Source: Candidatus Latescibacterota bacterium (GTDB lineage Bacteria > Latescibacterota > UBA2968 > UBA8231). From it: DNA of 64,000 nt. How positions within the stretch are numbered: the first letter of the stretch is position 1; each line of letters starts with the position of its first letter. Shown here piece by piece: positions 25,902 through 64,000 of this stretch. The stretch lies in the NCBI GenBank assembly GCA_965203355.1, contig OZ241889.1, positions 3,392,001 to 3,456,000 of the forward strand, given 5' to 3'. The position numbers were made by a program, and so were the translations under genes. A model generated the notes under the pieces. The model saw only the letters and a program-made list of their open reading frames with translations. It was not told where the DNA came from and searched no databases.

Positions 25902-26066
25902 ATGCGCCTATTGACCACGGATGGGGATCGGATTTCTCGTGCGAGCACTGGTTGGAAAACGCGACCTATTCAGCACTTGGCGGTGTTCACCGAAGAATTG
26001 GGGCTGAGTGTGGCTGAACAGGAGCAAGTGTTGGGGGCGACAGCTAGGCGGCTGTTTTTTAATTGA
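25902..26066 (+). pseudogene. Amidohydrolase remnant (internally deleted, frameshifted)
   Basis: AAGGAG RBS and ATG followed soon after by WGSDFSCEHW in one frame and ...EQEQVLGATARRLFF* in another, typical of an amidohydrolase C-terminus. Confidence 0.55.
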
Positions 26067-26100
26067 CAAGTCTTTACTGAAAGCCTAAATAAGTTATAAT
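26063..26100 (+). promoter_or_regulatory. Putative sigma70 promoter for the poly-C leader
   Basis: TTGACA at 26063 with TAAATA 17 bp downstream; also TATAAT at 26095. Confidence 0.55.
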
Positions 26101-26406
26101 TCACAGCGGCGGAGATACAAAACCCCGCGGCTTGCGGCACGCTCAGGCGGATTAACAGGACATGGGCACAGCGTCAATATCACAAAGAATACCATCGCTG
26201 GGATCGGTGCCTTGTTCTACGCTTGCAATAACGCCGAGGCTTTATCGTCATAAATCGTTAAAAAACAATGATTTACCCCCCCCCCCCAACTCCGATTTCT
26301 TGGGCATTAAGCTCTAGCATTCATCAGCTTATTCTCCTCCCGCCCCTTCCTAAGCAGAAGCGGGAAGAGGTATTGCTCTGCTCTGCCGCATCGGCAAGGC
26401 ACCCGC
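26098..26406 (+). repeat. Conserved leader element with C12 tract (copy 1)
   Basis: Aligns by eye to the reverse complement of 40548-40881 (shared GGATTAACAGGACATGGGCACA, GGTGCCTTGTTCTACGCTTGC, TTTCTTGGGCATTAAG). Confidence 0.9.
26162..26317 (+). CDS. Putative leader peptide (51 aa) spanning the poly-C tract
   Basis: Hand translation MGTASISQRIPSLGSVPCSTLAITPRLYRHKSLKNNDLPPPPNSDFLGIKL*; homologous ORF at 40645-40800 differs by an in-frame 12-nt indel. RBS spacing is poor. Confidence 0.55.
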   Translation: MGTASISQRIPSLGSVPCSTLAITPRLYRHKSLKNNDLPPPPNSDFLGIKL

Positions 26407-26485
26407 GGAGACATACCAAAAACGCACCGAGACAACTTGAGACTTCAAAATGTAGCACTACCCGGCATCGAGTTAGGTTGACACA

Positions 26486-28486
26486 ATGAAGGCTCTCACC
26501 TTTGCCGAGGAACTCTGCCTGCTCTTACAGGACGACGCCTTGGGTCAACTCCATCCGCTCGAGGGGCGGACCTTGGCCTTCGGCCTTGCGACCGCGACGT
26601 TGCTGGAGCTGGCTCAGCATGATCGCATAGACACCGATCTGGCCCATCTTCAGCTTATTGACCCGACGCCGCTGGGCGATCCCATCGCTGATCCCGCCTT
26701 GGCCCTGATCGCGGGAAACTCGGAGACTAACACTCCCCAATACTGGATTCGCCGCCTAGGGTTGCAGTTGGGCCCGCAGATACTTGACGCGGCCCGAGAA
26801 CGCCTATGCGAGCGGGGCATTCTGGAACGGGACCCGGGCGACCACTTCTTCTTGGCCCCGGCTGTGGCGCACGCGAAGCGCTATCCCGGCGTGCCGGGCG
26901 ACAGCGCGGAAGAGGTTCAGGTGCGCGTCATGCGGATTCTCTTCAACGAGGATGTCCCCCAACCGTGGGAGGCCGACCTGATCGGTCTCGCCGCTGCCTG
27001 CCGCGCATTCGAGAAGGTGCTGAGCGCCCGGGAACTCGACCGGGTGGGCGCCCGGATTGAGGCGGTGAAGTCGCTGAATCTCCTGTGCCGGGCGGGCCGT
27101 ATCGCCATCGACGAGGACTTGGCGGCCAGCCGGACCGCTCCCGATCTGCAGTACAAGCCGATTCCCAAGGTGCCCGGATTGCCGTTGATCGGCAACGCCC
27201 TCGGCATGACTGGCGACCTGAACGATTTCTTTACCAAGCTTCATCGGCGACACGGGCCGATCTTTCGCATTCGGTTGCCGGGTCGTCGCGTCGTCGTCTT
27301 GGCCGGCCGGGAGGCGAATGCTTTCGTACTTCAGCATGCGCGTACGCACTTGCGCTCAAACCGGGAGTTCAGCGAGTTCTGCCGGGCCATGGAGACCGAT
27401 CGCGCCCTGATATCAATGGACGGTGCCGATCACGTCAAGCTCAGGCGCGTGGCTCAGGCCGGCTACTCAAGGGCGGTCATTGAGCGAGACATAGGTCAGG
27501 CGATAGAAATAGCCCGGCGCCATGTGACCTCTTGGCCAGTGGGACAGCGGCTGCGGGCGTTCGAGACCATACAGCGGATCGTAACCGAGCAGGTAGGCAT
27601 CTTGGCAACCGGCCTGTCGCCGCGCGACTACATCGATGATCTCAAGTACTACTTCGATACGTTGGTTTTGACCGTCCGACGCGACCGTCCTCGGTTCATG
27701 TACGCGCACCGCATGCCTCGGGTTAGGGGCCGGATACGGGCGCTCTGCCAGCAGGTGATTGAGCTGCACGACCCCGACCTGCGGAAGGGGTGTCCACGCG
27801 ACGTCATCGACGCCTTTCTGGAGTTGCACCGCCAAGATCCGCAATTCCTGCCCGAAACCGACCTCATGTCCGCCGTGGTCGGGCCGTACATTGCCGCCGT
27901 GGATACTGTGGCTGGGACGTTGGGTTTTGCCGTTCTGCGTCTGCTCTCCGAGCCCAAGTACCTAGCGATACTTAGGGCCGAGGCGGATGCGCTCTTCGCC
28001 AACGGTATGCCCGACGCCCAGGACGTTCGCGCCCTGGTGAACACCCATGCCTTCGTGACCGAGGCACTTCGCTGTTACCCGACCGTGCCGGCAATGGTTC
28101 GCACCGTTTGCAATGGCTTTGAGTTCCAAGGGCACTACGTTCCCGCCGGAACCACGATCATGGTAGCGACCACGGTGGTTCACAAAGATCCCGAGTATTA
28201 CCCGGACCCCGACCGTTTTGAGCTCGAACGGCACCTGCCGCCCCGGACGGAATCAAAGCAGAAGGGTGCGTTTGCTCCGTTCGGCATCGGGCCGCACACC
28301 TGCCTAGGCGGAGCATTCGGTCAAGTGCAGATGGCGACGGTCATCGCCACGATGCTGCGCTACGGAGCGTTTGAGTGCGACCCCGCGCCCGAGAATGGCG
28401 TGATCCGGGCTACGGGCTATCCTTCATATCGTCCGCACCGCAAGGTCGGATTCCGTCTCGTTAGCCGCAGAAACGAAGGGGGTTGA
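26486..28486 (+). CDS. GPP34 (GOLPH3-like) domain fused to cytochrome P450
   Basis: N-terminal LTFAEELCLLL...LLELA...DPTPLGDP...L.ERGIL (GPP34-like); P450 I-helix AAVDT, EALR, heme motif FGIGPHTCLG. Confidence 0.85.
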   Translation: MKALTFAEELCLLLQDDALGQLHPLEGRTLAFGLATATLLELAQHDRIDTDLAHLQLIDPTPLGDPIADPALALIAGNSETNTPQYWIRRLGLQLGPQILDAARERLCERGILERDPGDHFFLAPAVAHAKRYPGVPGDSAEEVQVRVMRILFNEDVPQPWEADLIGLAAACRAFEKVLSARELDRVGARIEAVKSLNLLCRAGRIAIDEDLAASRTAPDLQYKPIPKVPGLPLIGNALGMTGDLNDFFTKLHRRHGPIFRIRLPGRRVVVLAGREANAFVLQHARTHLRSNREFSEFCRAMETDRALISMDGADHVKLRRVAQAGYSRAVIERDIGQAIEIARRHVTSWPVGQRLRAFETIQRIVTEQVGILATGLSPRDYIDDLKYYFDTLVLTVRRDRPRFMYAHRMPRVRGRIRALCQQVIELHDPDLRKGCPRDVIDAFLELHRQDPQFLPETDLMSAVVGPYIAAVDTVAGTLGFAVLRLLSEPKYLAILRAEADALFANGMPDAQDVRALVNTHAFVTEALRCYPTVPAMVRTVCNGFEFQGHYVPAGTTIMVATTVVHKDPEYYPDPDRFELERHLPPRTESKQKGAFAPFGIGPHTCLGGAFGQVQMATVIATMLRYGAFECDPAPENGVIRATGYPSYRPHRKVGFRLVSRRNEGG

Positions 28487-28555
28487 GTCTCCCTCGGTGG
28501 CTTGACGATGCGCGGGCGGGATTGAATCGGTCCATGTGCGTGGGAGGCTAATACT

Positions 28556-29662
28556 ATGGCTCGATCAGAAGAGTTCAATCCGATGTCGATGGCGCCTTTG
28601 CGCGTTTGGTGCCGGCTTCTCGCCAAGGTGGGCGGCGTGAAGCATCCCTACCGGGCCAGGCTCAGGCAGGCACTCATCACCAGTCTGATTACGGCCGTTC
28701 CACGCTGGCTGGAATGGGGTTTATACGGCCTGCCGGTCGCGCGGACCCGAATCACCAAGCCCCCCATTATCATCCTCGGCTTTCCGCGCTCGGGCACGAC
28801 TTTCCTCCACAACCTCTTGGCACACGACCCGGACTTAGGATATTGTTCCAACTATCAGGCCGCGATCCCATTCTGCCTGATTGGCGGGGAGCGCTTAAAG
28901 AGGAAGTTGGCGTCCCGGGTGCCCCAAAACCGGGGCATCGACAACATGGCGGCCGATATGGATCTGCCTCAGGAAGAGGTCTTCGCGCACGCGATGCATT
29001 CGCACCGTTCAGTCACACACGCATTCACCTTTCCCTCGCTGACGGAAGAACTGGGCCGGAAGTACGTGCTCATGGAGGCCAGCGACGCCGAGGTGCGTGC
29101 GTGGCGCAGGGGCTACATGAAGGTTGTGAAAAAGGCGACCTACATGCACGGTGGCAGGCGCGTCGTACAGAAGGCCACCCCAAATCTGGGGCGACTCCCC
29201 CAGATCATGGAGATGTTTCCGGGAGCCTACTACATACACATCGTTCGCAATCCCTACGATCTGTATCCGTCGTACATGCACATGCTGTCCACGCTGACTA
29301 AGTCGTACACTATGGAAGAATACGATCCGGCCGAGTTGGAGGCCGGGGCCGTCCGCATGTACCAGCGAATCATGCAGAACTACCTGAGGGACAGGTCATC
29401 TATTCCGCCCGACCGGTTCATCGAGATGCGTTTCGAGGATTTGCGTCGGGATCCAATGGGGGAGATTGGTCGGATTTACCGGAGCTTCGGCTTCGACTGG
29501 GAGAGAGCCGAAGCTCCGATCGCGGACTACGTCGCCACGCTGTCGTCGTACAAGCAGAACCAGTACGATCCCGATCCCCGCGTCCGCGAACAGGTCGATG
29601 CACACTGGAGGTTCGCGGTCGATGAGTGGAACTATGGCTCGCCGCCACCCGAGACCCCGTAG
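28556..29662 (+). CDS. PAPS-dependent sulfotransferase (Stf3-like)
   Basis: 5'-PSB motif GFPRSGTTFLHNLL; 3'-PB motif IHIVRNPYDLYPS. Confidence 0.9.
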   Translation: MARSEEFNPMSMAPLRVWCRLLAKVGGVKHPYRARLRQALITSLITAVPRWLEWGLYGLPVARTRITKPPIIILGFPRSGTTFLHNLLAHDPDLGYCSNYQAAIPFCLIGGERLKRKLASRVPQNRGIDNMAADMDLPQEEVFAHAMHSHRSVTHAFTFPSLTEELGRKYVLMEASDAEVRAWRRGYMKVVKKATYMHGGRRVVQKATPNLGRLPQIMEMFPGAYYIHIVRNPYDLYPSYMHMLSTLTKSYTMEEYDPAELEAGAVRMYQRIMQNYLRDRSSIPPDRFIEMRFEDLRRDPMGEIGRIYRSFGFDWERAEAPIADYVATLSSYKQNQYDPDPRVREQVDAHWRFAVDEWNYGSPPPETP

Positions 29663-35383: not shown

Positions 35384-35490
35384 GTGGTACGTTTTGAAAT
35401 TTAGCTTTACTCCCGTTGCACGGGTCGCTCTCGCTCGGCCTGAGCCGCGGCGACCCAAGCCCGATCTCAACCGTACCGCGACAATTGGAG
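35384..35490. repeat. Structured ~100-bp direct repeat, copy 1
   Basis: Shares TTAGCTTTACTCCCGTTG and CCCAAGCCCGA.CTCAACCGTACC.CGACAATTGGAG with 40931-41019. Confidence 0.85.
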
Positions 35491-35550
35491 ATTTCAAAAC
35501 GCATCACGACCGAATGATTTGGCGGTGCAGGGTAGTTGCCGACTTTGACC

Positions 35551-35868
35551 ATAGAAATGGGACCCGGCAGCGGTGGGGGGGCAAACCAGTGCGCTGTCTA
35601 ATTTCTAACATGGACATCCCAGAACATCGGGGTCCCATTTCCGTGCCTTGCGGTGTCGCGTGTGCTACTTGAGCAGCAGCATCTTCTGGACGGCGAGGAA
35701 GTCGCCGCCCGCTCGCAAGTGGTCCTGTAGGCTGTCGATCTGACGTTCATAAGAAAATGGGACCCCAGAACATCGGGGTCCCATTTCCGTGTCTTGCGGT
35801 GTCGTGGATGTTACTTGAGCAGCAGCATCTTCTGGACGGCGAGGAAGTCGCCGCCCGCTTGCAAGCGG
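35551..35868 (-). repeat. Tandem duplication of gene 3' end plus terminator (146-bp unit)
   Basis: The last ~18 codons and stop (35811) recur at 35665, each followed by a GGGACCCC...GGGGTCCC-type hairpin (second one degenerate). Confidence 0.9.
35755..35786 (-). terminator. Intrinsic terminator of the surface-protein gene
   Basis: AAATGGGACCCC-N8-GGGGTCCCATTT palindrome followed by a T-rich run on the minus strand. Confidence 0.75.
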
Positions 35869-38800
35869 TAGAAGTACATCCCCGACGACACGCTCTGGCC
35901 GCTATCGTTGGTCGCGTCCCACTCCACCGCGTAGCGACCGGCACTCTGATGCTCGGCGACCAGCGTCCGAATCGGCTGACCCAACACGTTATACACGGTC
36001 AGCCCCACGTCCGCCGCCTGCGGCAACGCATACTGAATCGTCGTCTGCGGGTTGAACGGGTTGGGATAGTTGGCTGCCAGCGAGAACACAGCCGGGCGCG
36101 TCTGCACCGAAATCGGCGCGGGCAATGCCAGCCGGTTGAAGCCCAACGCCCGGTCATACGTCTGGCTGTCGGTGATTTCGAGGGTCGTGTGCTCGATCTC
36201 GGTCGTCGGCCGGAAGACTAAGCGCAGCATCAGCTCGCCATCGGCAACGACATCGCCGTGCGCGGCTACCGTCAACACGCCCGCTTGGTCGGCCAGTACC
36301 TGCGGCGTAGCGAATGCGCTATCGCCCAGCGGCTGATCGGTCTGCGCCTCGACGAAAGTTAGCTGGTCGGCGTCATACGCTATCTGCAAGCCGTAGCCTT
36401 TGACCGCTACGAAGTCGGTCAACCGCACATTAACGACGAAATCCTCTCCCACGCTCGGCAGGGCTGTCGGCGCGTCCAGATACAGCCGCGCATCCGCATT
36501 CAGCCCGGCCTGCAACGCCACCGGCTTGCCAGCGCCGCTGTTGAACCGATCGAACAACGAACCGAGGTCGACAAAATCCAGCATCGCGTTGATTGTAATC
36601 GTGAACATCAGCGAGACGCTTTCGTCGCCCGCTATGGCCGTGTAGGTGACCTCAACGGCCCCATCGGTCGCCGCTTCCGGCGTCCCGGAAATCGTCCGGG
36701 TCGCCGCGTCAAACGACAGCCCGGCTGGCAGACCCGACACGCTATACGTGATGGCTCCCTCGCCGCCCAGTGCCATCGGCAGTTCCAACGAGTGAATCGC
36801 CGTGCCCGCCGTATAGGCATGTGCGGCAATCGAAGCACCCTCGACGAAAGACAAGGGAATCATCATCTCCTTATCGTCCATCATGCTGCGGTCCGTGTCC
36901 GTCAGCACCAGCGTCGCCGAACCCGCCGTCAAACCCGGTATCATCGCGTTGATCACAATCGTCTCGTCACCTTCGGCCATGCCGTCGGCTGTCGGATCAA
37001 CCAACAGGCGGGTCGAACCCATAATCGAACCGGCGGCAATGGTAATCGTTGGATCGAACAGGGCCGAGTAGTCCGTGTCGCGGGTGGCACTACTCGAAAT
37101 CTCATCAATCGAAACGGTCGCCGTGGCGTCCTCGGCCAACGGCTTGCCGTCCAGCGCGGCCATGACCATTACTTCCGTCAACTCGGCGGACTCGCTGAGC
37201 GCGCTCGGCATCACCGACACGACCAAAGACGTGCTGGCGGTCTCGTCGTCGGAAATCCGCAAGTCCACCTGCCCCCAGCCGCCCGAAGACACCGCCCGGA
37301 TCCCCAAGTGCTTATGACCGTCCGCCGAAGCGTTGTCAATCGGCGATAGGAAAAGCGTCGTCGAACCGACCTTTTCCCCGGCCGCAATGGTGATCGTCCC
37401 CGCCAACGTCGCGGTGTAATCCACGTCGCGGGTGGCCATCGCGCCGCTGGCGGGCGGCACAATCGTGAAGCGGACCGTCTCAGCCGCCGGAGCCGCCTCT
37501 GACAAGGTCGCTGTAATTCGGATTTCAGCCGTGTCGCCGTTTTCGCGCACGGCCGATTGCGAAGCCATCACACTGGCGACGCCCACGGTGACCGGCGGGG
37601 CCTCGCTGACCGTGATGGTGAAGGTCTTTGCGCCGCTATCGCCGTCGCCATCGATCACCGTATAGAAGACTTCCGACATACCCGCCATCGTCGGCGTTCC
37701 CGAAAGCGTCCGCGTCGCCGCGTCAAACGACAGACCCATCGGCAGGTCCGACGAGACCCTGTACCGCAGCGTTCCTTGGCCGCCCGTCGCCGCGGGCAAC
37801 ACCGCGCTGAACGCTTGACCTACCGTCGCTTCAAAGGCTAACGCCCCAGCGCCGAAACTCGGTCGTCCCGTGTCCGCGGGCGTATCCGAAGAACCAGAAT
37901 CATCCGTCATCGCCGCGTCTTTCAGCGTAATCTTCGCGGTGCTGACGGTGATCTTGTCGGCGTCTTGGTTCTTGAGATTGTCCGTGAGTTGCTTGATCGT
38001 GATCGTCTCGTCGTTGTCGTCTTTGCCGTCGTTGACCGGCTTGATCGTGATCGTCGTCGAGCCGGTGATCGCGCCGTGCGGAATCGTCAGCGAGCTAAGT
38101 GCTGCCGTGTAATCAACGTCCCGCGTCGCCGACTTGTCCGGCGTCCGATCCACGACCAAGGTGATCGTCGCCGCCGCGTCGAGCACCTTGCCGTCTAACG
38201 TGCCCGTAACCGTAACCGTCGTCGCCCCGGCGTCCTCTTTGATTTCACTCGGATTGACCGACAGCGTAATTTTTTCGCTCAGCGTCTCATCATCCGTGAT
38301 CGTGAACGTCTCCTCCTTCATCTGATCTTTTTCGTCGCCGACCTTCGCTTTTACCGTGAACGTCCACGGATCATTCTTACCGCTGTTGTTCGTCGGGGTG
38401 ACGCGCAGCATGGCCGTGCCTTTGGTGTCGCCGGCCGGGATCGTCAAGCCCTCAATGACCTCCACCTCGTAATGCACATCGCGCGTCCCGGAAGAACCCG
38501 GCGTAATCTGAAAGTCCACCGTCTTAGAGCCGGTTAAGGCCGCCGCCAATTCAACGTTCATCGCAACGTCCGTCGCCCCGCTTTCCTCGCGGATCGTCGC
38601 CGGACTCAGCGTAAATTTTTTGATCTGCGCCACCGCAACGTCCTCAACCGTGATGATGCCCGGATTGACCTTAATACGAACGACAAAAGAGTCCACATAC
38701 TTTAGCGTTACGGCCGCATCTCCGTAATTCCTCTGGAAAGTATCGCCGAAGTCGTTATCGCCGTTAAAGTCGATTTGATAACCATGTGAGACTTTTCGTT

Positions 38801-40310
38801 TGGATGGTACCTCGGTGATGCCAGGACCGCCGGTGGTCCAATCAGCGCACGTTTGTGGGTTCGAATCCGTTGCATCGAATAAGCAGAGACCTACCTCCGA
38901 TACTACCTTACCCTGGGGCACCACATACTCATCTAAAAGATCGCCATCCGCGAAAAGGTCGATCCCCAAGTCTGCTTCTACCAAGACGGTCCCCGCAGGT
39001 ACGACATCGGAATCTTTATAACTCGTATTTTGGTAATCCCACCCAAAAAACCCATCACCCTCTGGGTCTGTTCCAATATCCCCATCGCCGTTTAAGTCTA
39101 TACCGATACTTCGGAGGGTCTTTGTGGAGCCTTTAATAAATTGGTCGATATAAGTATTGCTATACTTCATAGCCTCTACTAGAGTCGTGCCTTCTGACAG
39201 GGTAAAACCATCGTCATCAAAGCTACCATCAAGATTAAGGTCGATCCGGACCCGCCGCCCCTCACTGTTCTGCCGTTTTAACTTCAGAATCAGCGTATCA
39301 CTACTGGCCTTCAGCACGATCTGGCCCGCCTTATCTTTCGGATCGAGAGTGAACGTAGTCGTCCCTTCAATCTTACGCCGCGGAACGGTCAGCTTCCCCA
39401 GACCACTAAGCGAGTAATGCACATCGCGCGTCAACGTATCGCTGGCAGCCCCCTTGCCCTCAACAATAGCCAATTGGGTTTCAAGGGTTTCAAGGGCTTG
39501 GGTCTTAAACGCACGGCCATCCAACGTCGCCGTCAATTCAATCGGAGTCGCATCCGCCTGCTTGCTGAGCTTGGACGGCTTAAAAGAAAGGTCGATGTTT
39601 TCGGACAACATCTCATCGTCAATCAGCTCCACATACATTCTCGAATACGTTTTTGTGTATACCTTGAAGCGTATAACAGGATGCTCACCGCCAATATATT
39701 CGTCAGACCGTTTGAAACCAGTTTTATATTTACCACTTTCAAACCGAAACATGATAGGGATATTACCTCCACCGACTAAATCCTCGTTGTTGGCTGGTCG
39801 AGCAAAGCCGTCGTCTTCGAGATTACGCTGAGTTGCAGTTAAATCAATAAAGATAGGCAAAGCCGGACTCATAGCCTGCCTCTCATAGTGATTCCATACT
39901 TTTCTTGTGACATCGGCCTCTGTGGCTGTGGGTGAGGTTGTGAAAGGTCCGACTCGCTTATTGTCTATCGGGGTTATGGTCAGCGTTCCAGTCGCCTTTT
40001 TCTCGCCCTTCTTAATCACGAAATTGGGGGTGGATAAGGTGAAGAAGCCGCCGAGATACTTTGAATAGGGACGCTCATCATCAAAAAGCATCGCAACGCG
40101 AATATCTTCGGTCGCCGCCTTCCCATCCTTTGTTTCTAAGGTCACCGTAATATCTTGTGCCCCCCTGTCCTCGCGGATCAAAACCCGGTCAAAGGAGACG
40201 AATAGGCTATCTTGGGCCGTGGCTTCCCCGGCCAACAGCAAGCTGGCCGCTAGCAACAAAGGCACAAACGCCAACCGCGGCATCGGCACGGACAACTTCG
40301 CATGTATCAT
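35811..40310 (-). CDS. Large secreted surface/adhesin-like protein (Calx-beta-like and He_PIG Ig repeats, cohesin-like domain, FlgD/T9SS type-A-like CTD)
   Basis: GGAGG RBS, signal peptide, ATRDVDYTA repeats, LPAGLSFDAATRTISGTP, NYPNPFNPQTTIQY...GMYFYRL...KMLLLK. Confidence 0.85.
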   Translation of the reverse strand: MIHAKLSVPMPRLAFVPLLLAASLLLAGEATAQDSLFVSFDRVLIREDRGAQDITVTLETKDGKAATEDIRVAMLFDDERPYSKYLGGFFTLSTPNFVIKKGEKKATGTLTITPIDNKRVGPFTTSPTATEADVTRKVWNHYERQAMSPALPIFIDLTATQRNLEDDGFARPANNEDLVGGGNIPIMFRFESGKYKTGFKRSDEYIGGEHPVIRFKVYTKTYSRMYVELIDDEMLSENIDLSFKPSKLSKQADATPIELTATLDGRAFKTQALETLETQLAIVEGKGAASDTLTRDVHYSLSGLGKLTVPRRKIEGTTTFTLDPKDKAGQIVLKASSDTLILKLKRQNSEGRRVRIDLNLDGSFDDDGFTLSEGTTLVEAMKYSNTYIDQFIKGSTKTLRSIGIDLNGDGDIGTDPEGDGFFGWDYQNTSYKDSDVVPAGTVLVEADLGIDLFADGDLLDEYVVPQGKVVSEVGLCLFDATDSNPQTCADWTTGGPGITEVPSKRKVSHGYQIDFNGDNDFGDTFQRNYGDAAVTLKYVDSFVVRIKVNPGIITVEDVAVAQIKKFTLSPATIREESGATDVAMNVELAAALTGSKTVDFQITPGSSGTRDVHYEVEVIEGLTIPAGDTKGTAMLRVTPTNNSGKNDPWTFTVKAKVGDEKDQMKEETFTITDDETLSEKITLSVNPSEIKEDAGATTVTVTGTLDGKVLDAAATITLVVDRTPDKSATRDVDYTAALSSLTIPHGAITGSTTITIKPVNDGKDDNDETITIKQLTDNLKNQDADKITVSTAKITLKDAAMTDDSGSSDTPADTGRPSFGAGALAFEATVGQAFSAVLPAATGGQGTLRYRVSSDLPMGLSFDAATRTLSGTPTMAGMSEVFYTVIDGDGDSGAKTFTITVSEAPPVTVGVASVMASQSAVRENGDTAEIRITATLSEAAPAAETVRFTIVPPASGAMATRDVDYTATLAGTITIAAGEKVGSTTLFLSPIDNASADGHKHLGIRAVSSGGWGQVDLRISDDETASTSLVVSVMPSALSESAELTEVMVMAALDGKPLAEDATATVSIDEISSSATRDTDYSALFDPTITIAAGSIMGSTRLLVDPTADGMAEGDETIVINAMIPGLTAGSATLVLTDTDRSMMDDKEMMIPLSFVEGASIAAHAYTAGTAIHSLELPMALGGEGAITYSVSGLPAGLSFDAATRTISGTPEAATDGAVEVTYTAIAGDESVSLMFTITINAMLDFVDLGSLFDRFNSGAGKPVALQAGLNADARLYLDAPTALPSVGEDFVVNVRLTDFVAVKGYGLQIAYDADQLTFVEAQTDQPLGDSAFATPQVLADQAGVLTVAAHGDVVADGELMLRLVFRPTTEIEHTTLEITDSQTYDRALGFNRLALPAPISVQTRPAVFSLAANYPNPFNPQTTIQYALPQAADVGLTVYNVLGQPIRTLVAEHQSAGRYAVEWDATNDSGQSVSSGMYFYRLQAGGDFLAVQKMLLLK

Positions 40311-40522
40311 GACTCAACCTCCTGAAGGAAAGCATCGCCCAAGGGCGAAAGGGAAGGGATAGAAGAAAATGGACTTAGCCGTAGAACTAAGCCGCTGCGT
40401 TCTTGCGTTTTTGCTACCGTTGAGCAAGACGAATCCCGCGCGGCGAGCGCGAGGCTACGACGTCGTCGGCCGATAACCGCGAGGCTACCGAGAATGGGGT
40501 TCGTTTGTGATGTGGATGGGTG

Positions 40523-40545
40523 GCCACTGACCACTGACCACTGGT
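40523..40545. repeat. Heptamer tandem repeat (CCACTGA)n
   Basis: CCACTGACCACTGACCACTGG; a similar run occurs at 45236-45268. Confidence 0.7.
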
Positions 40546-40547
40546 CA

Positions 40548-40881
40548 GCGGGGCTTACCGACGCGGCCGGGCAGAATAAGGCCGTTTCCCGCTTCCGTAG
40601 AGGAAGGGGAGCGAGGCAAATAGGTTGGTGAGTGAAGCTAGGGCTTAATGCCCAAGAAAATTCGGGGGGGGGGGTAAGTGTTTGTTTTTTAACGACTTAT
40701 GACGATCAAGTCTCGACGTTATCGCAAGCGTAGAACAAGGCACCGCCATCAGCACCGCTCCCGGCGATGGCGTTCTTTGTGCTATTGACGTTGTGCCCAT
40801 GTCCTGTTAATCCGACTAAGAATGCCGCCAGCGGCCGAGGTTCTATAACCCAAACGCAACGCGCCGCTGTGCGCTGTGAAT
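40548..40881 (-). repeat. Conserved leader element with C11 tract (G11 on +), copy 2
   Basis: Reverse complement aligns to 26098-26406. Confidence 0.9.
40645..40800 (-). CDS. Putative leader peptide (51 aa) spanning the poly-C tract
   Basis: Hand translation MGTTSIAQRTPSPGAVLMAVPCSTLAITSRLDRHKSLKNKHLPPPPNFLGH*; homolog of 26162-26317. Confidence 0.55.
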   Translation of the reverse strand: MGTTSIAQRTPSPGAVLMAVPCSTLAITSRLDRHKSLKNKHLPPPPNFLGH

Positions 40882-40894
40882 TTCACACCTAACG

Positions 40895-40924
40895 ATTATA
40901 CAACCTCAGTTAAACGTTTGTCAA
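40895..40924 (-). promoter_or_regulatory. Consensus sigma70 promoter
   Basis: Minus strand reads TTGACA-N18-TATAAT directly upstream of the leader element. Confidence 0.75.
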
Positions 40925-40930
40925 ATGTAG

Positions 40931-41019
40931 GTCGTGGTTTTTGAAACTTAGCTTTACTCCCGTTGGATCGCCCCGGCTCCACCCCAAGCCCGACCTCAAC
41001 CGTACCACGACAATTGGAG
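40931..41019. repeat. Structured ~90-bp direct repeat, copy 2
   Basis: Homolog of 35384-35490; closed by a GTCGTGGT/ACCACGAC stem; just downstream of the rpe stop. Confidence 0.85.
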
Positions 41020-41028
41020 GTTGCCCGG

Positions 41029-41679
41029 TCAGCCGCGCAGGTCGGCGATGACGCTGGCTGGGTCTTGAGCACCGAAGATGGCGGAGCCGGCCACTAAGCG
41101 CTGGGCACCAGCACGGCGGCAGGCGGCTGCGTTGCCGGGATGGACGCCGCCGTCGATACCGACGGACACGGATAGCCCTCGGCGCTCGATTTCCGCGCAC
41201 AGATCGCGGATTTTGTCGAGGGCGGTGGGTTGGAAGGGCTGGCCGCCAAATCCCGGCTCCACGGACATGATCAAGGCCGAGTCGAGTTCGTCGAGATGGG
41301 GATAGAGGGCGGAGACAGGCGTTTGGGGGTTGATCGCAAGGCCGCACTGGAGACCGCGCTGGCGGATGGCGCTGAGGACGGCCCGGAGGTCGGATTCGAT
41401 TTCCACGTGGACCACGAGCGAGTCTGCGCCCGCTTCTTTGAAGGGGCCGATAAAGGGCAAAGGGTCTTGCAACATCAGGTGCGTGTCGAGTTCGAGGCGG
41501 GTAGTTTGGCGCACGGCCGCGACGACCGGCAGCCCAAAGCTGATGTTGGGGACGAAGTGCCCGTCCATTACGTCGAGATGGAGAAAGTCAGCCCCGCCGC
41601 GCTCGACGCGGCCGATGTCCTCGGCCAGGCGGGCAAAGTCGGCGGCCAAGAGCGATGGGCCGATGCGCAGGGTGCTCAC
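41029..41679 (-). CDS. rpe: Ribulose-phosphate 3-epimerase
   Basis: PSLLAADF, HLDVMDGHFVPNISFG, MSVEPGFGGQ, DGG. Confidence 0.97.
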   Translation of the reverse strand: MSTLRIGPSLLAADFARLAEDIGRVERGGADFLHLDVMDGHFVPNISFGLPVVAAVRQTTRLELDTHLMLQDPLPFIGPFKEAGADSLVVHVEIESDLRAVLSAIRQRGLQCGLAINPQTPVSALYPHLDELDSALIMSVEPGFGGQPFQPTALDKIRDLCAEIERRGLSVSVGIDGGVHPGNAAACRRAGAQRLVAGSAIFGAQDPASVIADLRG

Positions 41680-45235: not shown

Positions 45236-45268
45236 TGACTGACCACTGACCACTGGCTACTGACCACC
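45236..45268. repeat. Heptamer tandem repeat (CTGACCA)n
   Basis: GACTGACCACTGACCACTGGCTACTGACCAC in intergenic DNA. Confidence 0.65.
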
Positions 45269-45459
45269 TGCTTTTACGAGACGTTTCTAAAGCGGCCAGA
45301 AAGTGTTATGCTATTTCATGGCCGATGTTGGGATTTTCACCCAAGCGAAATCGGCCCAATTACCCGATACCCCTTTTCATTATAGTGCTTGTAGTGTATC
45401 GCGAAAAATTTGACGCAGCCATCCTCGGAGCCTTGTCGCTCCGCCTGACCTAAATACGT

Positions 45460-58769: not shown

Positions 58770-58904
58770 GGTCGTCCGGTGGGCTGTTTAGTTCTTGACA
58801 TTGGCAATAGAAATGGGACCCGGCAGCGGTGGGGACGGCGGGTCGTCCGGTGGGCTGTTTAGTTCCTGACATTGACAATAGAAATCGACATTAACAATAG
58901 AAAT
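58770..58904. repeat. Local ~45-bp direct repeats
   Basis: GGTCGTCCGGTGGGCTGTTTAGTTC.TGACATT..CAATAGAAAT at 58770 and 58841, plus a partial third copy. Confidence 0.85.
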
Positions 58905-59312
58905 GAGACCCCAGAACATCAGGGTCCGATTTCCGTAACTCGCGGTGTCGTGTGTGCTACTTGAGCAGCAGCATCTTCTGGATGTCGACAAACGCTTCAC
59001 CTGCCTGCAAGCGGTCCGTAGGTTGTCGATCGGACGTTCATAAAGAAAATGGGACCTCAAACCGAAAATTGAGGTCCCATTTTCGTAACTTGCGGTGTCG
59101 CGTGTGCTACTTGAGCAGCATCTTCTGGACGGCGAGGCAATCGCCGCCCGCCTGCAAGCGGGCCGTAGCCTGTCGATCTGACGTTCATAAGAAAATGGGA
59201 CCCCAGAAAACTGAGGTCCCATTTCCGTAACTCGCCAACATCGTGTCGCGTGTGCTACTTGAGCAGCAGCATCTTCTTGATGTCGAGGAAATCACCGCCC
59301 GCCTGCAAGCGG
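58900..59312 (-). repeat. Tandem array (148 and 150-bp units) of variant gene 3' ends plus terminators
   Basis: Stop-codon-bearing copies at 59255 (gene), 59107 and 58957, each followed by a GGGACC...GGTCCC-type hairpin. Confidence 0.92.
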
Positions 59313-62300
59313 TAGAAGTACATTCCCGACGACACGCTGTGGCCACTATCGTTGGTCGCGTCCCACTCCACCGCGTAACGACCCGCCGCCTGATGCTCGG
59401 CGACCAGCGTCCGAATCGGCTGACCCAACACGTTATATACGGTCAGCCCCACGTCCGCCGCTTGCGGCAACGCATACTGAATCGTCGTCTGCGGGTTGAA
59501 CGGGTTGGGATAGTTGGCTGCCAGCGAGAACACGGCCGGGCGCGTCTGCACCGAAACCGGCGCGGGCAATGCCAGCCGGTTAAAGCCCAACGCCCGGTCA
59601 TACGTCTGGCTGTCGGTGATTTCGAGGGTCGTGTGCGCGATCTCGGTCGTCGGCCGGAAGACTAAGCGCAGCATCAGCTCGCCATCGGCAACGACATCGC
59701 CGTGCGTGGCTACCGTCAACACGCCCGCTTGGTCGGCCAACACCTGCGGCGTAGCGAATGCGCTCCCGCCCAGCGGCTGATCGGTCTGCGCCTCGACGAA
59801 GGTCAACCGGTCGGCGTCATACGCTATCTGCAAGCCGTAGCCTTTGACCGCCACGAAGTCGGCTAACCGCACATTAACGATGAACTCCTCTCCTACGCTC
59901 GGCAGGGCTGTCGGCGCGTCCAGATACAGCCGCGCCTCCGTATTCAGCCCGGTCCGCAGCGGCACCGGCTTGCCCGCCACGGCCACGCTGCGACCGAAAT
60001 GGTCGGCCAACACGAAGAAGTCGTCGAAGTCAATCGTCCCATTCGGGGCCAAGTCAAACGCTGGATCAAACCCCGCGTCGCCTGCCGTCAAGCCGAAGCG
60101 GTCCGCCAACACGAAGAAGTCGTCGAACCCAATGCGAGCATCCGCGCCGAACAGCCCCAACAGAGCCTGCCCTTGGCTATCGGCCACCCGATTGCGCACG
60201 GCTAACGCGGTATGCTCGACCGAACCGGTCTCGTTGTCTAAGTCGAAGGGCCGCACCTGATAGGTGTAATGCACGCCATGCTGCGCCGTCTCATCAACGA
60301 AGGACGCTACCCCGGACGCCACCTCGGCGACCACGGAAAACGCTTCGTCTCCCACGGCGCGGCGGTAGATGCGGTAGCCATGTACGCCCACGACCGGCTC
60401 GACCGGCGCCGGGCCCAAGGCACCAGCTACGACTCCTTGCAGCACCTGATCCGATGGCGACAGTGTCCACGTCAGCGCGATGCGACCGCCTTGATCGTCC
60501 GGCGCATCCAACACCTGCAACGCTGGCACGGCCAACGGCGCGATGTCGTCGGTCGCCCGCACGGCCTCGGCCGTCCAAGTAATCGACGAACTCAGCACGT
60601 TACCGACGACATTTAGCTTCGGTGCCACGCCGCGAGCGTAGGCTAATGCTTCCGGCAGCAACGATGCCAACACCGGACCCTCACCGCCCTGCGCGGCAGC
60701 GCGGCTGGCTTGCAGCGTCGCCGCCATCTGCGCGTAGGGCTGCGTCAGGTCGTCCGCCTCGACGAACACGGCTTTGGCCATCGTGTGCGTGGTGCGGCCA
60801 CCTTTTTCGGCGGCAATGCCCCAGCGCGTCGAGACGTTGTCCAGCGTCGCCACGATGGCGCGGCCCATCGCTACGCCGGGCACGGCATCTACTCGCGCCC
60901 ACGGCACCATCTCATTTTCCAGCACCGGCAACGCACGGAAAATGCGATAGCCGTCCAGCGACTTATGATCGGCCGATAGCTCCCAAGACAGCATCACGAA
61001 ACCGCCTTGGTCGCCTTGGCCGTCCGCACCTTTGTAGTCCTCGGCGACCAGGTTTGTCGGCGCCGACAGCGGCGGCTCCACCACCGCCATGCTCAACGGC
61101 AGCGACTGACTCGCGCCGCTGGCATCTACGACCGTGTAGGTCGCAACCGTCTCGCCCATCACCGTCGGCGTCCCGGAAATCGTCCGGGTGGCCGCGTCAA
61201 ACGACAGTCCCGTCGGCAGCCCCGACACGCTATACGTCAGCGGCGGGGTGCCCCCGGAGACCGCCGGCAACGTCAGGTTTGCCGGCACGTTAATGGTGAA
61301 TTGAATCATGTTGTCGGTGTGCGAATCCGCCGGATTGGCCTTGCCAGCACCGCTGTTGAGACCGAACAACGAACTCAGGTCGCCAAAGTCCAGCATCGCG
61401 TTGATGGTAATCGCGAACGTCAGCGAGACGCTTTCGGCACCAGCCATCGCCGTGTAGGTGACTTCAACGGCCCCATCGGTCGCCGCTTCCGGTGTCCCGG
61501 AAATCGTCCGGGTCGCCGCGTCAAATGACAGTCCCGCTGGCAGATCCGACACGCTATACGTGATGGTGCCTTCGCCGCCTAACGCGACCGGCAGCACCAA
61601 CGGCGTAATCGCCGTGCCCGCCGTGTAGGTGTGTGCGGCAATCGAAGTGCCCTCGACGAAAGCCAAGGCGATCATCATATCCTTATCGCCGTCCATATTG
61701 TCGTCCATCATGCCGCGGTCCGTGTCGGTCAGTACCAGCGTCGCCGAACCCGCTGTCAAGCCGGGCAGCATCGCGTTGAGCACAACCGTCTCGTCGCCTT
61801 CGGCCATGCCGTCGGCGACCGGATCAACCAACAGGCGCGTCGAACCCATGATCGAACCGGCCGCAATGGTGATGGTCGGATCGAACAGGGCCGAGTAGTC
61901 CGTGTCGCGTATGGCACTACTCGAAACCTCATCAATCGAGACGATGGCGGTGGCGTCCTCGGCCAGCGGCTTGCCGTCCAGCGCGGCCATGACCATCACT
62001 TCCGTCAATTCCGCCGACTCGGGGATCGCGCTCGGCATCACCGACAGCACCAAAGACGTGCTGGCGGTTTCGTCGTCGGAAATGCGGATGTCCACCTGAT
62101 CCCAACCGCCCGAAGACACCGCCCGAACCCCCAAGTGCTTATGACCGTCCGCCGAAGCGTTGTCGATGGGCGATAGGAAAAGCGTCGTCGAGCCGACCTT
62201 TTCCCCGGCCGCAATGGTGGCGGTCCCCGCTAACGTCGCGGTGTAATCCACGTCGCGGGTGGCCATCGCGCCGCTGGCCGGCGGCACAATCGTGAAGCGG

Positions 62301-64000
62301 ACCGTCTCGGTGGCCGAAGCCGCTGCCGACAAGGTCGCCGTAACTCGGATTTCAGCCGTATCGCCGTTTTCGCGCACGGCCGATTGCGAAGCTACCACGC
62401 TGGCAACGCCCACGATGACCGGCGGAGCCTCGCTGATGGTGATGGTGATGGTTTTTATCCGGCCATCGCCGTCGGCATCGAACGCCATGTAGACGATCGA
62501 GGACATGCCCGCCATTGTCGGCGTCCCGGAAAGCGTCCGGGTGGCCGGGTCAAACGACAGCCCGGCCGGGAGGTCCGACGTGACGCTGTACATCAGCGTT
62601 CCTTGGCCGCCTGTGGCGGCGGGCAACACCTCGCTGAACGCTTGCCCTACCGTCGCTTCAAAGGCTAATGCACCGTCGCCAAAGGTCGGTCGTCCCGTGT
62701 CCGTGTCCGCGGGCGTCTCGGAAGAATCAGAATCATCCATCATCGCCGCGTCTTTCAGCTTGATCGTCGCGGTGCTGACCGTGATCTTCTCGTCGTCTTG
62801 GTTCTTGAGGTTGTCCGTGAGCTGCTTCAGCGTGATCGTCTCGTCGTTGTCGTCGGTCCCGTCATTGACTGGCGTAATCGTGATCGTCATCGAGCTAACG
62901 ACCTCGCCGGCCGGAATCGTCAGCGAGCCAAGCACTGCCGTGTAATCCAGATCCCGAATCGCCCTCTTTTCAGCCGTCCGATCCAAGCCCAGCGTGATCG
63001 TCGCATCCGCGTCGAGCACCTTGCCGTCTAACGTGCCGGTCACCGTGACGGTCGTCGCCCCGGCGTTTTCTTTGATCTCACTCGGGCTGACCGACAGCGT
63101 GATGTTTTCGCTCAGCGTCTCATTGTCCGTGATCGTGAACACCACCGAATCCATTTGAGACGCTTCATTGCCGACCTTCGCTTTCACCTGGAACTTCCGC
63201 GGCTCATTCTTACCGCTGTCGTCCACTGGCGTGACGCGCAGTGTCGCCGTGCCCTTGGTGTCGCCCGCCGGGATCGTCAAGCCCTCAATCACATCCACCT
63301 CGTAATGCACGTCGCGCGTCCCACCCCCCGACACCGCCGTAAGCTGAAAGTCCACCGCCTTCGCGCCGGTTAAGGCTTTCTCCAATTCAACGTTCATCGC
63401 AACGTCCATCGCTCCGCCTTCCTCGCGGATCGTCGCCGGACTCAGCGTGAACGCCTTGAGCGTCGCAACCGCAACGTCCTCAATCGTGATGGTGCCCGAA
63501 TTGACCGTAACCGGAAAGGCAAAAGAGTCCATGTGCTTTAACGTGTCCCCAGTACCGAACGTGTAAGCCAAGCCGCCATCGCCGTCAAAGTCGATGGCAC
63601 CGACTCTCTTTACTGAGGATTCGCTTCCTGCGATTTTGTCTCCGCTTGCAGGGAATAGGTAGAGACCTACTTCCGTTAATACGCTATCGGCGGGCACCAT
63701 ATAGGTATCCAAATAATCGCCATCCCCGAAAAAGTCGATCCCCAAGTCTTTTTCTACCAAGATGGTTTTCGCCGGGACGAAGTCGGATTCACCGAAACTG
63801 TCATTGCTAACCGTAAACCCAAAATACTCATCACCATCTGTGTTTGTCCCAACATCCCCATCGCCGTTAAAGTCCACTCCGTAAATAGTGTTATTCCCAC
63901 TGGTGCTTTCAGGCGCAGTGGCGTTTTCGGGTATGATATAATCATCGCCGTCAAAGGTCCCATCAAGGGTCAAGTCTAGCCTTACCTGCTTGCCCTTATG
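59255..64000 (-). CDS. Large secreted surface protein, paralog of 35811-40310 (5'-partial), with extra Ig, FN3-like and EF-hand/dockerin-like modules
   Basis: Frame is open to the window end; Calx/He_PIG/CTD blocks nearly identical to the paralog; paired FDDFFVLAD.FG repeat. Confidence 0.88.
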   Translation of the reverse strand, partial: HKGKQVRLDLTLDGTFDGDDYIIPENATAPESTSGNNTIYGVDFNGDGDVGTNTDGDEYFGFTVSNDSFGESDFVPAKTILVEKDLGIDFFGDGDYLDTYMVPADSVLTEVGLYLFPASGDKIAGSESSVKRVGAIDFDGDGGLAYTFGTGDTLKHMDSFAFPVTVNSGTITIEDVAVATLKAFTLSPATIREEGGAMDVAMNVELEKALTGAKAVDFQLTAVSGGGTRDVHYEVDVIEGLTIPAGDTKGTATLRVTPVDDSGKNEPRKFQVKAKVGNEASQMDSVVFTITDNETLSENITLSVSPSEIKENAGATTVTVTGTLDGKVLDADATITLGLDRTAEKRAIRDLDYTAVLGSLTIPAGEVVSSMTITITPVNDGTDDNDETITLKQLTDNLKNQDDEKITVSTATIKLKDAAMMDDSDSSETPADTDTGRPTFGDGALAFEATVGQAFSEVLPAATGGQGTLMYSVTSDLPAGLSFDPATRTLSGTPTMAGMSSIVYMAFDADGDGRIKTITITISEAPPVIVGVASVVASQSAVRENGDTAEIRVTATLSAAASATETVRFTIVPPASGAMATRDVDYTATLAGTATIAAGEKVGSTTLFLSPIDNASADGHKHLGVRAVSSGGWDQVDIRISDDETASTSLVLSVMPSAIPESAELTEVMVMAALDGKPLAEDATAIVSIDEVSSSAIRDTDYSALFDPTITIAAGSIMGSTRLLVDPVADGMAEGDETVVLNAMLPGLTAGSATLVLTDTDRGMMDDNMDGDKDMMIALAFVEGTSIAAHTYTAGTAITPLVLPVALGGEGTITYSVSDLPAGLSFDAATRTISGTPEAATDGAVEVTYTAMAGAESVSLTFAITINAMLDFGDLSSLFGLNSGAGKANPADSHTDNMIQFTINVPANLTLPAVSGGTPPLTYSVSGLPTGLSFDAATRTISGTPTVMGETVATYTVVDASGASQSLPLSMAVVEPPLSAPTNLVAEDYKGADGQGDQGGFVMLSWELSADHKSLDGYRIFRALPVLENEMVPWARVDAVPGVAMGRAIVATLDNVSTRWGIAAEKGGRTTHTMAKAVFVEADDLTQPYAQMAATLQASRAAAQGGEGPVLASLLPEALAYARGVAPKLNVVGNVLSSSITWTAEAVRATDDIAPLAVPALQVLDAPDDQGGRIALTWTLSPSDQVLQGVVAGALGPAPVEPVVGVHGYRIYRRAVGDEAFSVVAEVASGVASFVDETAQHGVHYTYQVRPFDLDNETGSVEHTALAVRNRVADSQGQALLGLFGADARIGFDDFFVLADRFGLTAGDAGFDPAFDLAPNGTIDFDDFFVLADHFGRSVAVAGKPVPLRTGLNTEARLYLDAPTALPSVGEEFIVNVRLADFVAVKGYGLQIAYDADRLTFVEAQTDQPLGGSAFATPQVLADQAGVLTVATHGDVVADGELMLRLVFRPTTEIAHTTLEITDSQTYDRALGFNRLALPAPVSVQTRPAVFSLAANYPNPFNPQTTIQYALPQAADVGLTVYNVLGQPIRTLVAEHQAAGRYAVEWDATNDSGHSVSSGMYFYRLQAGGDFLDIKKMLLLK

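Follow-up and report, generated by a model that had tools for sequence, protein, structure and literature searches.

A putative poly-C leader reading-frame switch upstream of surface-protein genes in sponge-associated Latescibacterota

We analyzed a 64-kb stretch of DNA from a Candidatus Latescibacterota bacterium (contig OZ241889.1; the whole stretch is hereafter called the window) in which a gene for a giant secreted protein is preceded, on the minus strand, by a leader open reading frame (ORF) that runs into a poly-C tract. We propose, at a probability of roughly 0.68, that this leader is a heritable frame switch, i.e., that changes in the length of the C tract give random ON/OFF control of the downstream gene. 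A second leader of the same kind lies in front of another gene of the window; we refer to the leader of the giant gene as copy 2 and to the other one as copy 1. An earlier note on this DNA, made from the sequence alone, had suggested such a stochastic leader-ORF switch. That reading is supported by a family of related modules in other genomes, by frame traps formed by stop codons around the tract, by tract lengths between C9 and C24 that spread evenly over the residues modulo 3, and by two orthologous loci (L140 and L144) whose only gap lies in the tract.

Copy 2 and the gene behind it comprise the following features, given with window coordinates and with lengths in nucleotides (nt) or amino acids (aa).

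40895..40924, minus strand: promoter-like site; TTGACA at 40924-40919, 18-nt spacer, TATAAT at 40900-40895; matches at 12/12 positions
40645..40800, minus strand: leader ORF as now read (C11, OFF state); ATG at 40800, 51 aa, TAA at 40647-40645
40675..40701, minus strand: A-rich conserved core 5' of the tract, with one stop codon in each of the other two frames
40664..40674, minus strand: poly-C tract, C11, the proposed hypermutable switch; read from the sequence
40638..40663, minus strand: frame trap 3' of the tract; TAA at 40647-40645 and TAG at 40640-40638 end two frames, within 5 and 7 codons, and leave one open
40307..40663, minus strand: coupling frame of copy 2 (needs C12, C9 or C15); 118 codons, with its TGA at 40309-40307 overlapping the ATG at 40310 (ATGA)
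40362..40393, minus strand: terminator-like hairpin of 9 pairs with a U-rich tail, 62 nt 5' of the giant gene ATG and within the coupling frame
40318..40323, minus strand: AGGAGG ribosome-binding site of the giant gene, 7 nt 5' of the ATG; read from the sequence
35811..40310, minus strand: giant gene behind copy 2, encoding a secreted protein of 1499 aa that has He_PIG domains and whose C-terminal domain (CTD) is FlgD_ig / Por_Secre_tail

The earlier note had described a TTGACA-N18-TATAAT site upstream of copy 2, an upstream ORF (uORF) with its ATG at 40800, a C11 tract at 40674-40664 and a TAA stop at 40645, and a frame that with C12 stays open for about 120 codons to a TGA (40309-40307) on the ATG at 40310. 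All of these were recovered from the sequence; the promoter-like site matches at 12/12 positions at 40924-40895, the open stretch counts 118 codons and the C12 product 42 + 4 + 118 = 164 aa. Both non-coupling frames contain 5 stops each between 40307 and 40663. No other promoter-like site was found on the minus strand within 40200-41100, and the region scanned around copy 2 holds 2 promoter-like sites vs 0.4 ± 0.6 in shuffles. The tract lies about 220 nt downstream of this site, inside the ORF, and no sigma-70-like site was found downstream of the tract in the three loci scanned, i.e., copy 2, copy 1 and L093. Only four homopolymers of at least 8 nt occur in the window, and two of them are the C11 of copy 2 and the C12 of copy 1.

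Copy 1 is laid out in the same manner on the other strand.

26063..26489, plus strand: copy 1 module; TTGACA at 26063-26068, TTTACT-N16-TATAAT at 26073-26100, ATG at 26162, C12 at 26276-26287, current stop TAG at 26315-26317
ending at 26489, plus strand: coupling frame of copy 1 (needs C11 or C14); its TGA at 26487-26489 overlaps the ATG at 26486 (ATGA)
26486..28486, plus strand: gene behind copy 1, encoding a 666-aa GPP34-cytochrome P450 fusion

The two copies are 77% identical across 287 aligned columns. They differ by indels of 12 nt 5' of the tract, as the earlier note had it, and of 3 nt 3' of the tract. Copy 1 has the same -1 ATGA overlap as copy 2, although the gene behind it is unrelated to the giant gene. 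Both copies are now OFF and, as had been claimed, one base from the coupled state; this claim can be refined in that the changes needed are opposite, i.e., +1 in copy 2 (C11 to C12) and -1 in copy 1 (C12 to C11). As separate observations, the region behind copy 1 (26486-29662) encodes GPP34 (Golgi phosphoprotein 3-like) and cytochrome P450, an unusual eukaryote-like domain pair, followed by a sulfotransferase, and a heptamer-like repeat with an internal palindrome is found both inside the copy 2 leader (40521-40558) and in a divergent intergenic region (45240-45277).

We searched for further copies in Latescibacterota, the phylum to which the survey was confined. The window SRP54 protein (Ffh) is 91-95% identical to that of 23 genomes (G122-G124, G127-G130, G133-G135, G137-G141 and G143-G150). 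When the copy 2 leader was searched by BLAST, G137, the closest relative, proved to contain at least 11 copies (77-80% identity across some 300 nt); short matches, with the tract and its 5' flank at their centre, came from G149, G145, G128, G135 and G112. A pattern made of the A-rich core and C9 matched in 21 of the 167 genomes of the phylum, compared with 2 matches in total for the reversed control pattern; matches extended to a distant clade with an Ffh only 57-62% identical to that of the window. Distinct pattern sites numbered 14 in G137 and 29 in G149, and 14 of the 25 tracts of at least nine C in G137 belong to the module. Exact matches to two conserved leader stretches were absent from the genome and metagenome contigs scanned, and a third stretch had none in the 80 rpe loci listed, which came from relatives of 41-53% identity. 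Four sequencing runs from two studies contain most of the 64-kb stretch. In run X1, the depth over the leader is 5-16x that of single-copy flanks and contigs break inside the leader, which is a sign of multiple copies; X5, a sponge metagenome run, yielded a 5.9-kb contig with about 130 differences from the window. Judged by its sequence relatives, copy 2 appears to be one member of a family of portable regulatory modules in sponge-associated Latescibacterota.

For the comparison of frames we used 89 loci, i.e., 87 fetched from relatives (with 28 of the 29 G149 sites) and the two window copies, and kept those with 30 or more open codons ahead of the tract and 40 or more behind it. The full architecture, an ATG-started frame into the tract with the other frames closed and one frame open to or fused with the gene, was present in 77/89 loci. 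Before the tract, the leader frame, with TTA as its last codon, reaches back without a break to an ATG, in most cases 114-132 nt upstream (about 42 nt in short forms); 58 copies have 0 stops in this frame vs means of 2.9 and 2.7 in the other two, and ATG and frame are kept in 13/13 aligned copies. After the tract, the coupling frame has none, vs a mean of 3.3 stops in each of the two non-coupling frames (63 copies), and the trap closes two frames within 12 codons in 37 of the 77 copies, one in 33 and none in 7. Fused copies, in which the tract lies within the 5' end of the main ORF, make up 14/77, and in several of them the tract precedes a signal-peptide-like hydrophobic stretch. In unfused copies, the leader stop falls between -25 and +29 nt from the start codon of an ORF of at least 150 codons in 44/63 cases. 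The commonest stop/start offsets are -1 (18 copies, ATGA or GTGA), -10 (11 copies) and +14 or +16 (6 copies), and the -1 overlap recurs among several leader clusters with unlike post-tract sequences. In silico, tracts of one length class in three lead into a frame that extends to the downstream gene or is fused with it, and those of the other two classes run into a stop within a few codons.

The lengths of the 77 tracts, C9 to C24, fall into the three residues modulo 3 as 23/24/30, i.e., uniformly, and 23/77 copies are in frame (ON). Both the modulo-3 spread and the in-frame fraction are what random length drift predicts. Of 12 within-genome pairs whose 120-nt flanks are both 93% or more identical without gaps, 11 differ in tract length. 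Two between-genome pairs give the same picture. Between the orthologues L140 and L144, identity is 97.2% over 1878 nt and the alignment opens one gap; their tracts are C11 (off) and C12 (ON), and the 120 nt on either side of the tract are identical in ungapped comparison. Because the flanks are identical and the tracts differ, we assign the single gap to the tract. In the second pair, G127 has C12 and G129 has C14 between flanks that are 98-100% identical, and in both pairs the length difference separates an OFF from an ON state. Contigs of runs X1 and X3 match the copy 1 region without a gap. A contig of run X4 over 26259-26551 has 0 substitutions and one gap, placed only to within that span, which would fit C11, the ON length, in copy 1 of another sample. 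From these sequence comparisons, the tract behaves as a repeat that changes length far faster than its flanks, as expected of a simple-sequence-repeat contingency locus. Single-T interruptions were seen in the tracts of L161, L169, L141 and L091 (e.g., C9-T-C7 or C15-T-C9); such an interruption could stabilize a locus in one state.

Substitutions in the leader are spread over codon positions 1/2/3 as 10/15/12 before and 25/27/23 after the tract in G137, and as 7/4/7 before and 44/39/39 after it in G149, compared with 35/14/84 in the main genes of G149. Since leader substitutions lack a codon-position bias, translation of the leader seems to matter rather than its product. Outside the leader frame, stop sites appear and vanish, with 11 and 31 variable sites after the tract; the leader frame itself acquires none. 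For the 51-aa leader peptide, no homologue was found among proteins of 28-90 aa; against 1.84 billion representatives, it gave 3 weak multi-stretch matches (best E = 1.3e-5), none of them credible.

The A-rich core is common to 60 distinct copies from 21 genomes, and its invariant columns include an A5C run and the TT of the final TTA, a conservation that is partly due to the pattern used for locus collection. The invariant A5C and TTA persist even in the distant clade, and frame-trap stops or a hairpin do not explain them. A -1 frameshift on the A AAA AAC heptamer of the core was considered and rejected: its first A varies, being G, C or T elsewhere among the clusters, and the -1 frame meets a stop before the tract in G137 copies.

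Taken as a mechanism, the module would work as follows. The promoter would drive a leader ORF that runs into the hypermutable poly-C tract, the length of which replication slippage probably alters by one or two bases at high rate. One length class in three would keep the ribosome in the frame that is open to the downstream start codon. Complete translation of the leader would lead to expression of the downstream gene; an early leader stop would leave the gene silent. Copy 2 with its C11 would then be OFF and one insertion from ON, and copy 1 with its C12 would be OFF and one deletion from ON. With up to 29 loci per genome, a population could display random combinations of surface proteins and eukaryote-like repeat proteins.

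Leader translation might be coupled to the downstream gene by several routes. One is termination-reinitiation at the ATGA overlap, or unmasking of the start site. In the G137 copies, a GAGGAG similar to the AGGAGG of the giant gene lies 5' of the ATGA, and in the folds of two of them (L093 and L115) a U-rich stretch pairs with the ribosome-binding site. As a second route, the ribosome could melt a hairpin that is terminator-like or masks the start site, i.e., act on an attenuator. Terminator-like sites with a U-rich tail occur in 15/63 leaders vs 3.4 expected from shuffles; 9 G137 copies have such a hairpin, with a different stem, at the homologous place, and it lies 50-62 nt 5' of the main ATG in these copies and copy 2. 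The lone terminator-like match in G149 is found about 180 nt before the leader stop and far from the gene start. Thirdly, translation could shield C-rich RNA from Rho. Rho scored above the family cut-off in 5/5 relatives, and the post-tract leader contains 31.5% C and 24.9% G, a C/G ratio of 1.27 vs 0.96 in genes. We regard Rho-dependent polarity as a possible contribution to the coupling.

Several points weigh against the switch. Loci were collected by similarity or by the pattern of A-rich core and C9, so that degenerate or tract-less relatives are unsampled, and 12/89 loci failed the architecture filter. The coupling frame was defined as the longest frame, which is partly circular. A first-order Markov simulation gave p = 0.007-0.52 for the open frame per cluster representative, mostly 0.1-0.3. 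Judged copy by copy, the open frame is not significant, as stretches of this length are not uncommon in the simulation, so that the case rests on recurrence and on stop/start adjacency; a start codon near the leader stop was not found in 19/63 unfused copies. In several clusters, the ribosome-binding site of the leader ATG is weak or badly spaced. With a strong AGGAGG of its own, the giant gene could be translated independently of the leader. The terminator-like hairpin, seen in only 15/63 leaders overall, is absent from copy 1 and from 24/25 G149 leaders scanned. The sequencing runs were compared as contigs and tract lengths are assembly calls, in which long homopolymers are prone to error. 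MutS1 is present in 5/5 relatives, which are therefore not general mutators.

Finally, indels that are not a multiple of 3 are common in cluster-wide alignments (61/93 gap events post-tract and 7/16 pre-tract). The earlier note had read a preserved peptide register after the tract as a sign of selection on the reading frame, and had named common frameshifting indels outside the tract as evidence to the contrary. The register stands between the two window copies and is lost across the family. Frameshifting indels are indeed common, so that the objection holds in its letter; it does not hold in its intent, since net frameshifts are offset by loss of early stops or by further indels and every copy examined retains an open frame, to the gene start in 12/12 G137 and 18/18 G149 copies.

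A far-reaching version of the frame switch appears attractive to us and yet rather doubtful. It holds that the module is a self-contained portable cassette of promoter, leader ORF, A-rich core, poly-C tract, second trap and spacer ORF that docks on the start codon. Copies of the cassette would have come to stand in front of dozens of genes unrelated to one another, and deep branches of the Latescibacterota would have retained it. There it would serve combinatorial surface variation in uncultured sponge symbionts, of a kind so far associated with pathogens, and the invariant A5C core would speak for a specialized mechanism of slippage or stalling instead of plain replication slippage.

Among the other explanations, a choice of frame at the RNA level fares best, and we nevertheless consider it unlikely. 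Here, polymerase or ribosome would slip on the C run, maybe with poly-proline stalling, and a fixed in-frame fraction would make the leader a damper or noise generator. Runs of 9-24 identical bases are runs of proline codons on which tRNA re-pairing is possible in any frame, and the ON fraction of 23/77 equals the random expectation, as if DNA length were irrelevant. Upstream hairpins stimulate transcriptional slippage, and the 5' flank is palindromic in its consensus, with 76.8% of cells paired vs 22-48% in slid registers. This hairpin is weak, however: its mean minimum free energy is -2.2 kcal/mol, with 0.0 in the typical G137 copy L093, and covariation is barely above shuffles. RNA polymerase slippage is, moreover, documented mainly for A/T runs. 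A programmed frameshift or slippage should act by the same shift in all members. The window copies need opposite shifts (+1 vs -1) and the lengths are uniform modulo 3 (23/24/30); no single programmed shift direction therefore fits. DNA-level length differences, on the other hand, are seen directly between near-identical copies.

It is less probable still that the leader is a frame-independent RNA or DNA element, e.g., a Rho-loading site, a protein-binding site or a structured 5' untranslated region (UTR), with open frames that would simply follow from a C-rich sequence. In its favour, poly-C is known as the classic ligand of Rho. Nucleotide-level conservation of the core extends to the rare TTA and AAA codons, the G137 leader shows 75 substitution types in 381 nt vs 216 in 450 nt of the genes behind it, and a single open frame arises by chance at 0.1-0.3 per cluster in simulation. 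Composition, however, leaves unexplained the conserved stops on both sides of the tract, the ATG, the 18 ATGA/GTGA overlaps and the 14 fusions. Searches with Rfam 15 over the 64 kb gave 0 matches at the gathering threshold; over 40250-40960, the only match was to sR23, a C/D-box model, on the opposite strand with 16.1 bits (gathering threshold 45, E = 0.17). Folding energies were ordinary (z = -0.32 and -1.07) and the palindrome before the tract is weak, and RNA structure was rejected as the main explanation.

We see very little room for a dispersed repeat, such as a relative of miniature inverted-repeat transposable elements (MITE-like) or a mobile-element remnant, that came to lie before genes by chance and has no regulatory role. 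The leader is multi-copy, with the 5-16x depth and broken contigs in X1 mentioned above, and leader and giant gene together form a 5.5-kb insertion between rpe and ffh with a 40-nt direct repeat. All 77 filtered loci nevertheless read towards the downstream ORF, and the frame abuts or joins its start in 58; no terminal inverted repeats or transposase were seen, although these were not searched for systematically.

The idea that fares worst, an ordinary gene for a small protein of about 110-170 aa that is translationally coupled to the next gene and whose out-of-frame tracts are assembly errors, can draw on the fact that long homopolymers are error-prone in assemblies and that one base change gives each window copy a complete ORF ending in the ATGA overlap, but we dismiss it in view of the mere 23/77 copies in frame (the random expectation), the missing codon-position bias, a post-tract peptide that cannot be aligned between clusters, the 51-aa peptide without credible homologue and the X1 and X3 contigs that reproduce the copy 1 region without a gap.

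Returning to the poly-C frame switch, we examined which genes it may control. A Pfam scan of ten downstream proteins identified leucine-rich repeat (LRR), LDL-receptor class B, fn3, cadherin, Calx-beta, NHL, FlgD_ig/Por_Secre_tail and dockerin domains, as well as a glucose/sorbosone dehydrogenase-cytochrome c fusion and a dynamin-like GTPase; for one protein, the scan gave no match. Proteins of the LRR, cadherin, fn3, Calx-beta and CTD type are thought to mediate contact between symbiont and host. As predicted from these domains, the controlled genes would mostly encode surface proteins with LRR, fn3, cadherin, Calx-beta or CTD, which fit a contingency role. In PMC12993501, many eukaryote-like protein genes are reported for sponge-associated Latescibacterota metagenome-assembled genomes (MAGs), and all MAGs of that study have them.

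As for the genomic setting of copy 2, the leader, the giant gene and trailing repeats (35428-41022) constitute the 5.5-kb insertion between rpe and ffh, two genes that are spaced by about 86 nt in 6/6 closest relatives. The 40-nt direct repeat flanks it at 35454-35493 and 40983-41022 (93% alike). Contigs of X1 and X5 join 35428 to 40980; as the shorter side of the joint has only 26-27 letters, we treat it as weak. Tandem repeats with a period of about 146 nt directly follow both giant genes of the window (35533-35870 and 58770-59313), and each repeat consists of a GC-rich hairpin and then a T-rich stretch, terminator-like on the minus strand. The second giant gene is a paralogue at 59255-64000 that is 77-93% identical in blocks and runs off the window end, with its 5' end beyond base 64000. 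At 35533-38574, in the C-terminal part of the giant gene, contigs add up to a depth of about 17-40x that of single-copy flanks in X1, 17-74x in X3 and 7-27x in X5, which points to a large paralogous family or to many strains.

We did not find a description of the module in the literature searched, a search that left aside supplementary files, which possibly hold repeat annotations. In the text of PMC12993501, the strings 'phase varia', 'homopolymer' and 'poly-c' have 0 occurrences. The module does, however, share features with known switches.

In Neisseria, Haemophilus and Campylobacter, surface genes carry homopolymer tracts in the 5' coding or signal-peptide region and form intragenic contingency loci. 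The proposed module likewise would switch the frame of surface genes by a homopolymer, and its 14 fused copies are exactly of that type. In contrast to these classical loci, the tract of copy 2 sits in a separate upstream ORF, and conserved flank and frame traps form a unit that is shared by unrelated genes across the phylum. The fim promoters of Bordetella have a poly-C stretch between promoter elements, and its length sets ON or OFF via transcription initiation. Here too, paralogous surface-structure genes would each have a poly-C tract with shared flanks whose length sets the state; unlike in fim, the tract lies about 220 nt downstream of the promoter-like site and inside an ORF.

A review (PMC12360218) treats, in the part at hand, stochastic Rho-dependent control as a route to phase variation. 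As in the uORF/Rho attenuation that it covers, an early leader stop would expose C-rich RNA to Rho; unlike its stochastic examples, which in that part are invertible DNA elements, the module has a repeat tract in a uORF, and sequence features suggest a possible role of Rho.

Among the known systems, pil1 of Streptococcus gallolyticus comes closest; in it, GCAGA repeats in a leader-peptide gene are combined with transcription attenuation and leader translation disrupts a terminator (Danne et al. 2014, PMC3894217). As far as the excerpted account of pil1 goes, both systems have a simple repeat in an upstream leader ORF that sets the translated length. Long translation turns on the downstream surface-structure gene in pil1 and would do so here, with a stochastic and heterogeneous outcome, and a terminator-like hairpin lies within the long frame of copy 2 and of its relatives in G137. 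In contrast to pil1, as described there, the repeat is a homopolymer of C9-C24 instead of a 5-nt unit, 14-29 loci per genome replace one operon, and the terminator-like hairpin is missing from most clusters. Moreover, the stop of the long frame overlaps the gene's start codon (ATGA), which suggests translational coupling, and the module belongs to an uncultured phylum and is known here from its sequence.

Compared with the known switches, the new elements would be the homopolymer unit, a leader that docks on the start codon, a frame-trapping core, reuse at 14-29 loci and occurrence in an uncultured symbiont phylum. Repeat-driven phase variation is textbook knowledge for a few cultured pathogens. 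The present module would extend the same logic, as a conserved and reusable unit at 14-29 loci per genome, to an uncultured phylum of symbionts. If so, sponge symbiont populations would be mosaics of surface types, and presence or absence of a gene in a MAG would tell little about its expression. The hypothesis can be tested with existing read data via tract lengths per locus. It would give a second, independent leader-ORF repeat switch after pil1, with a different coupling geometry.

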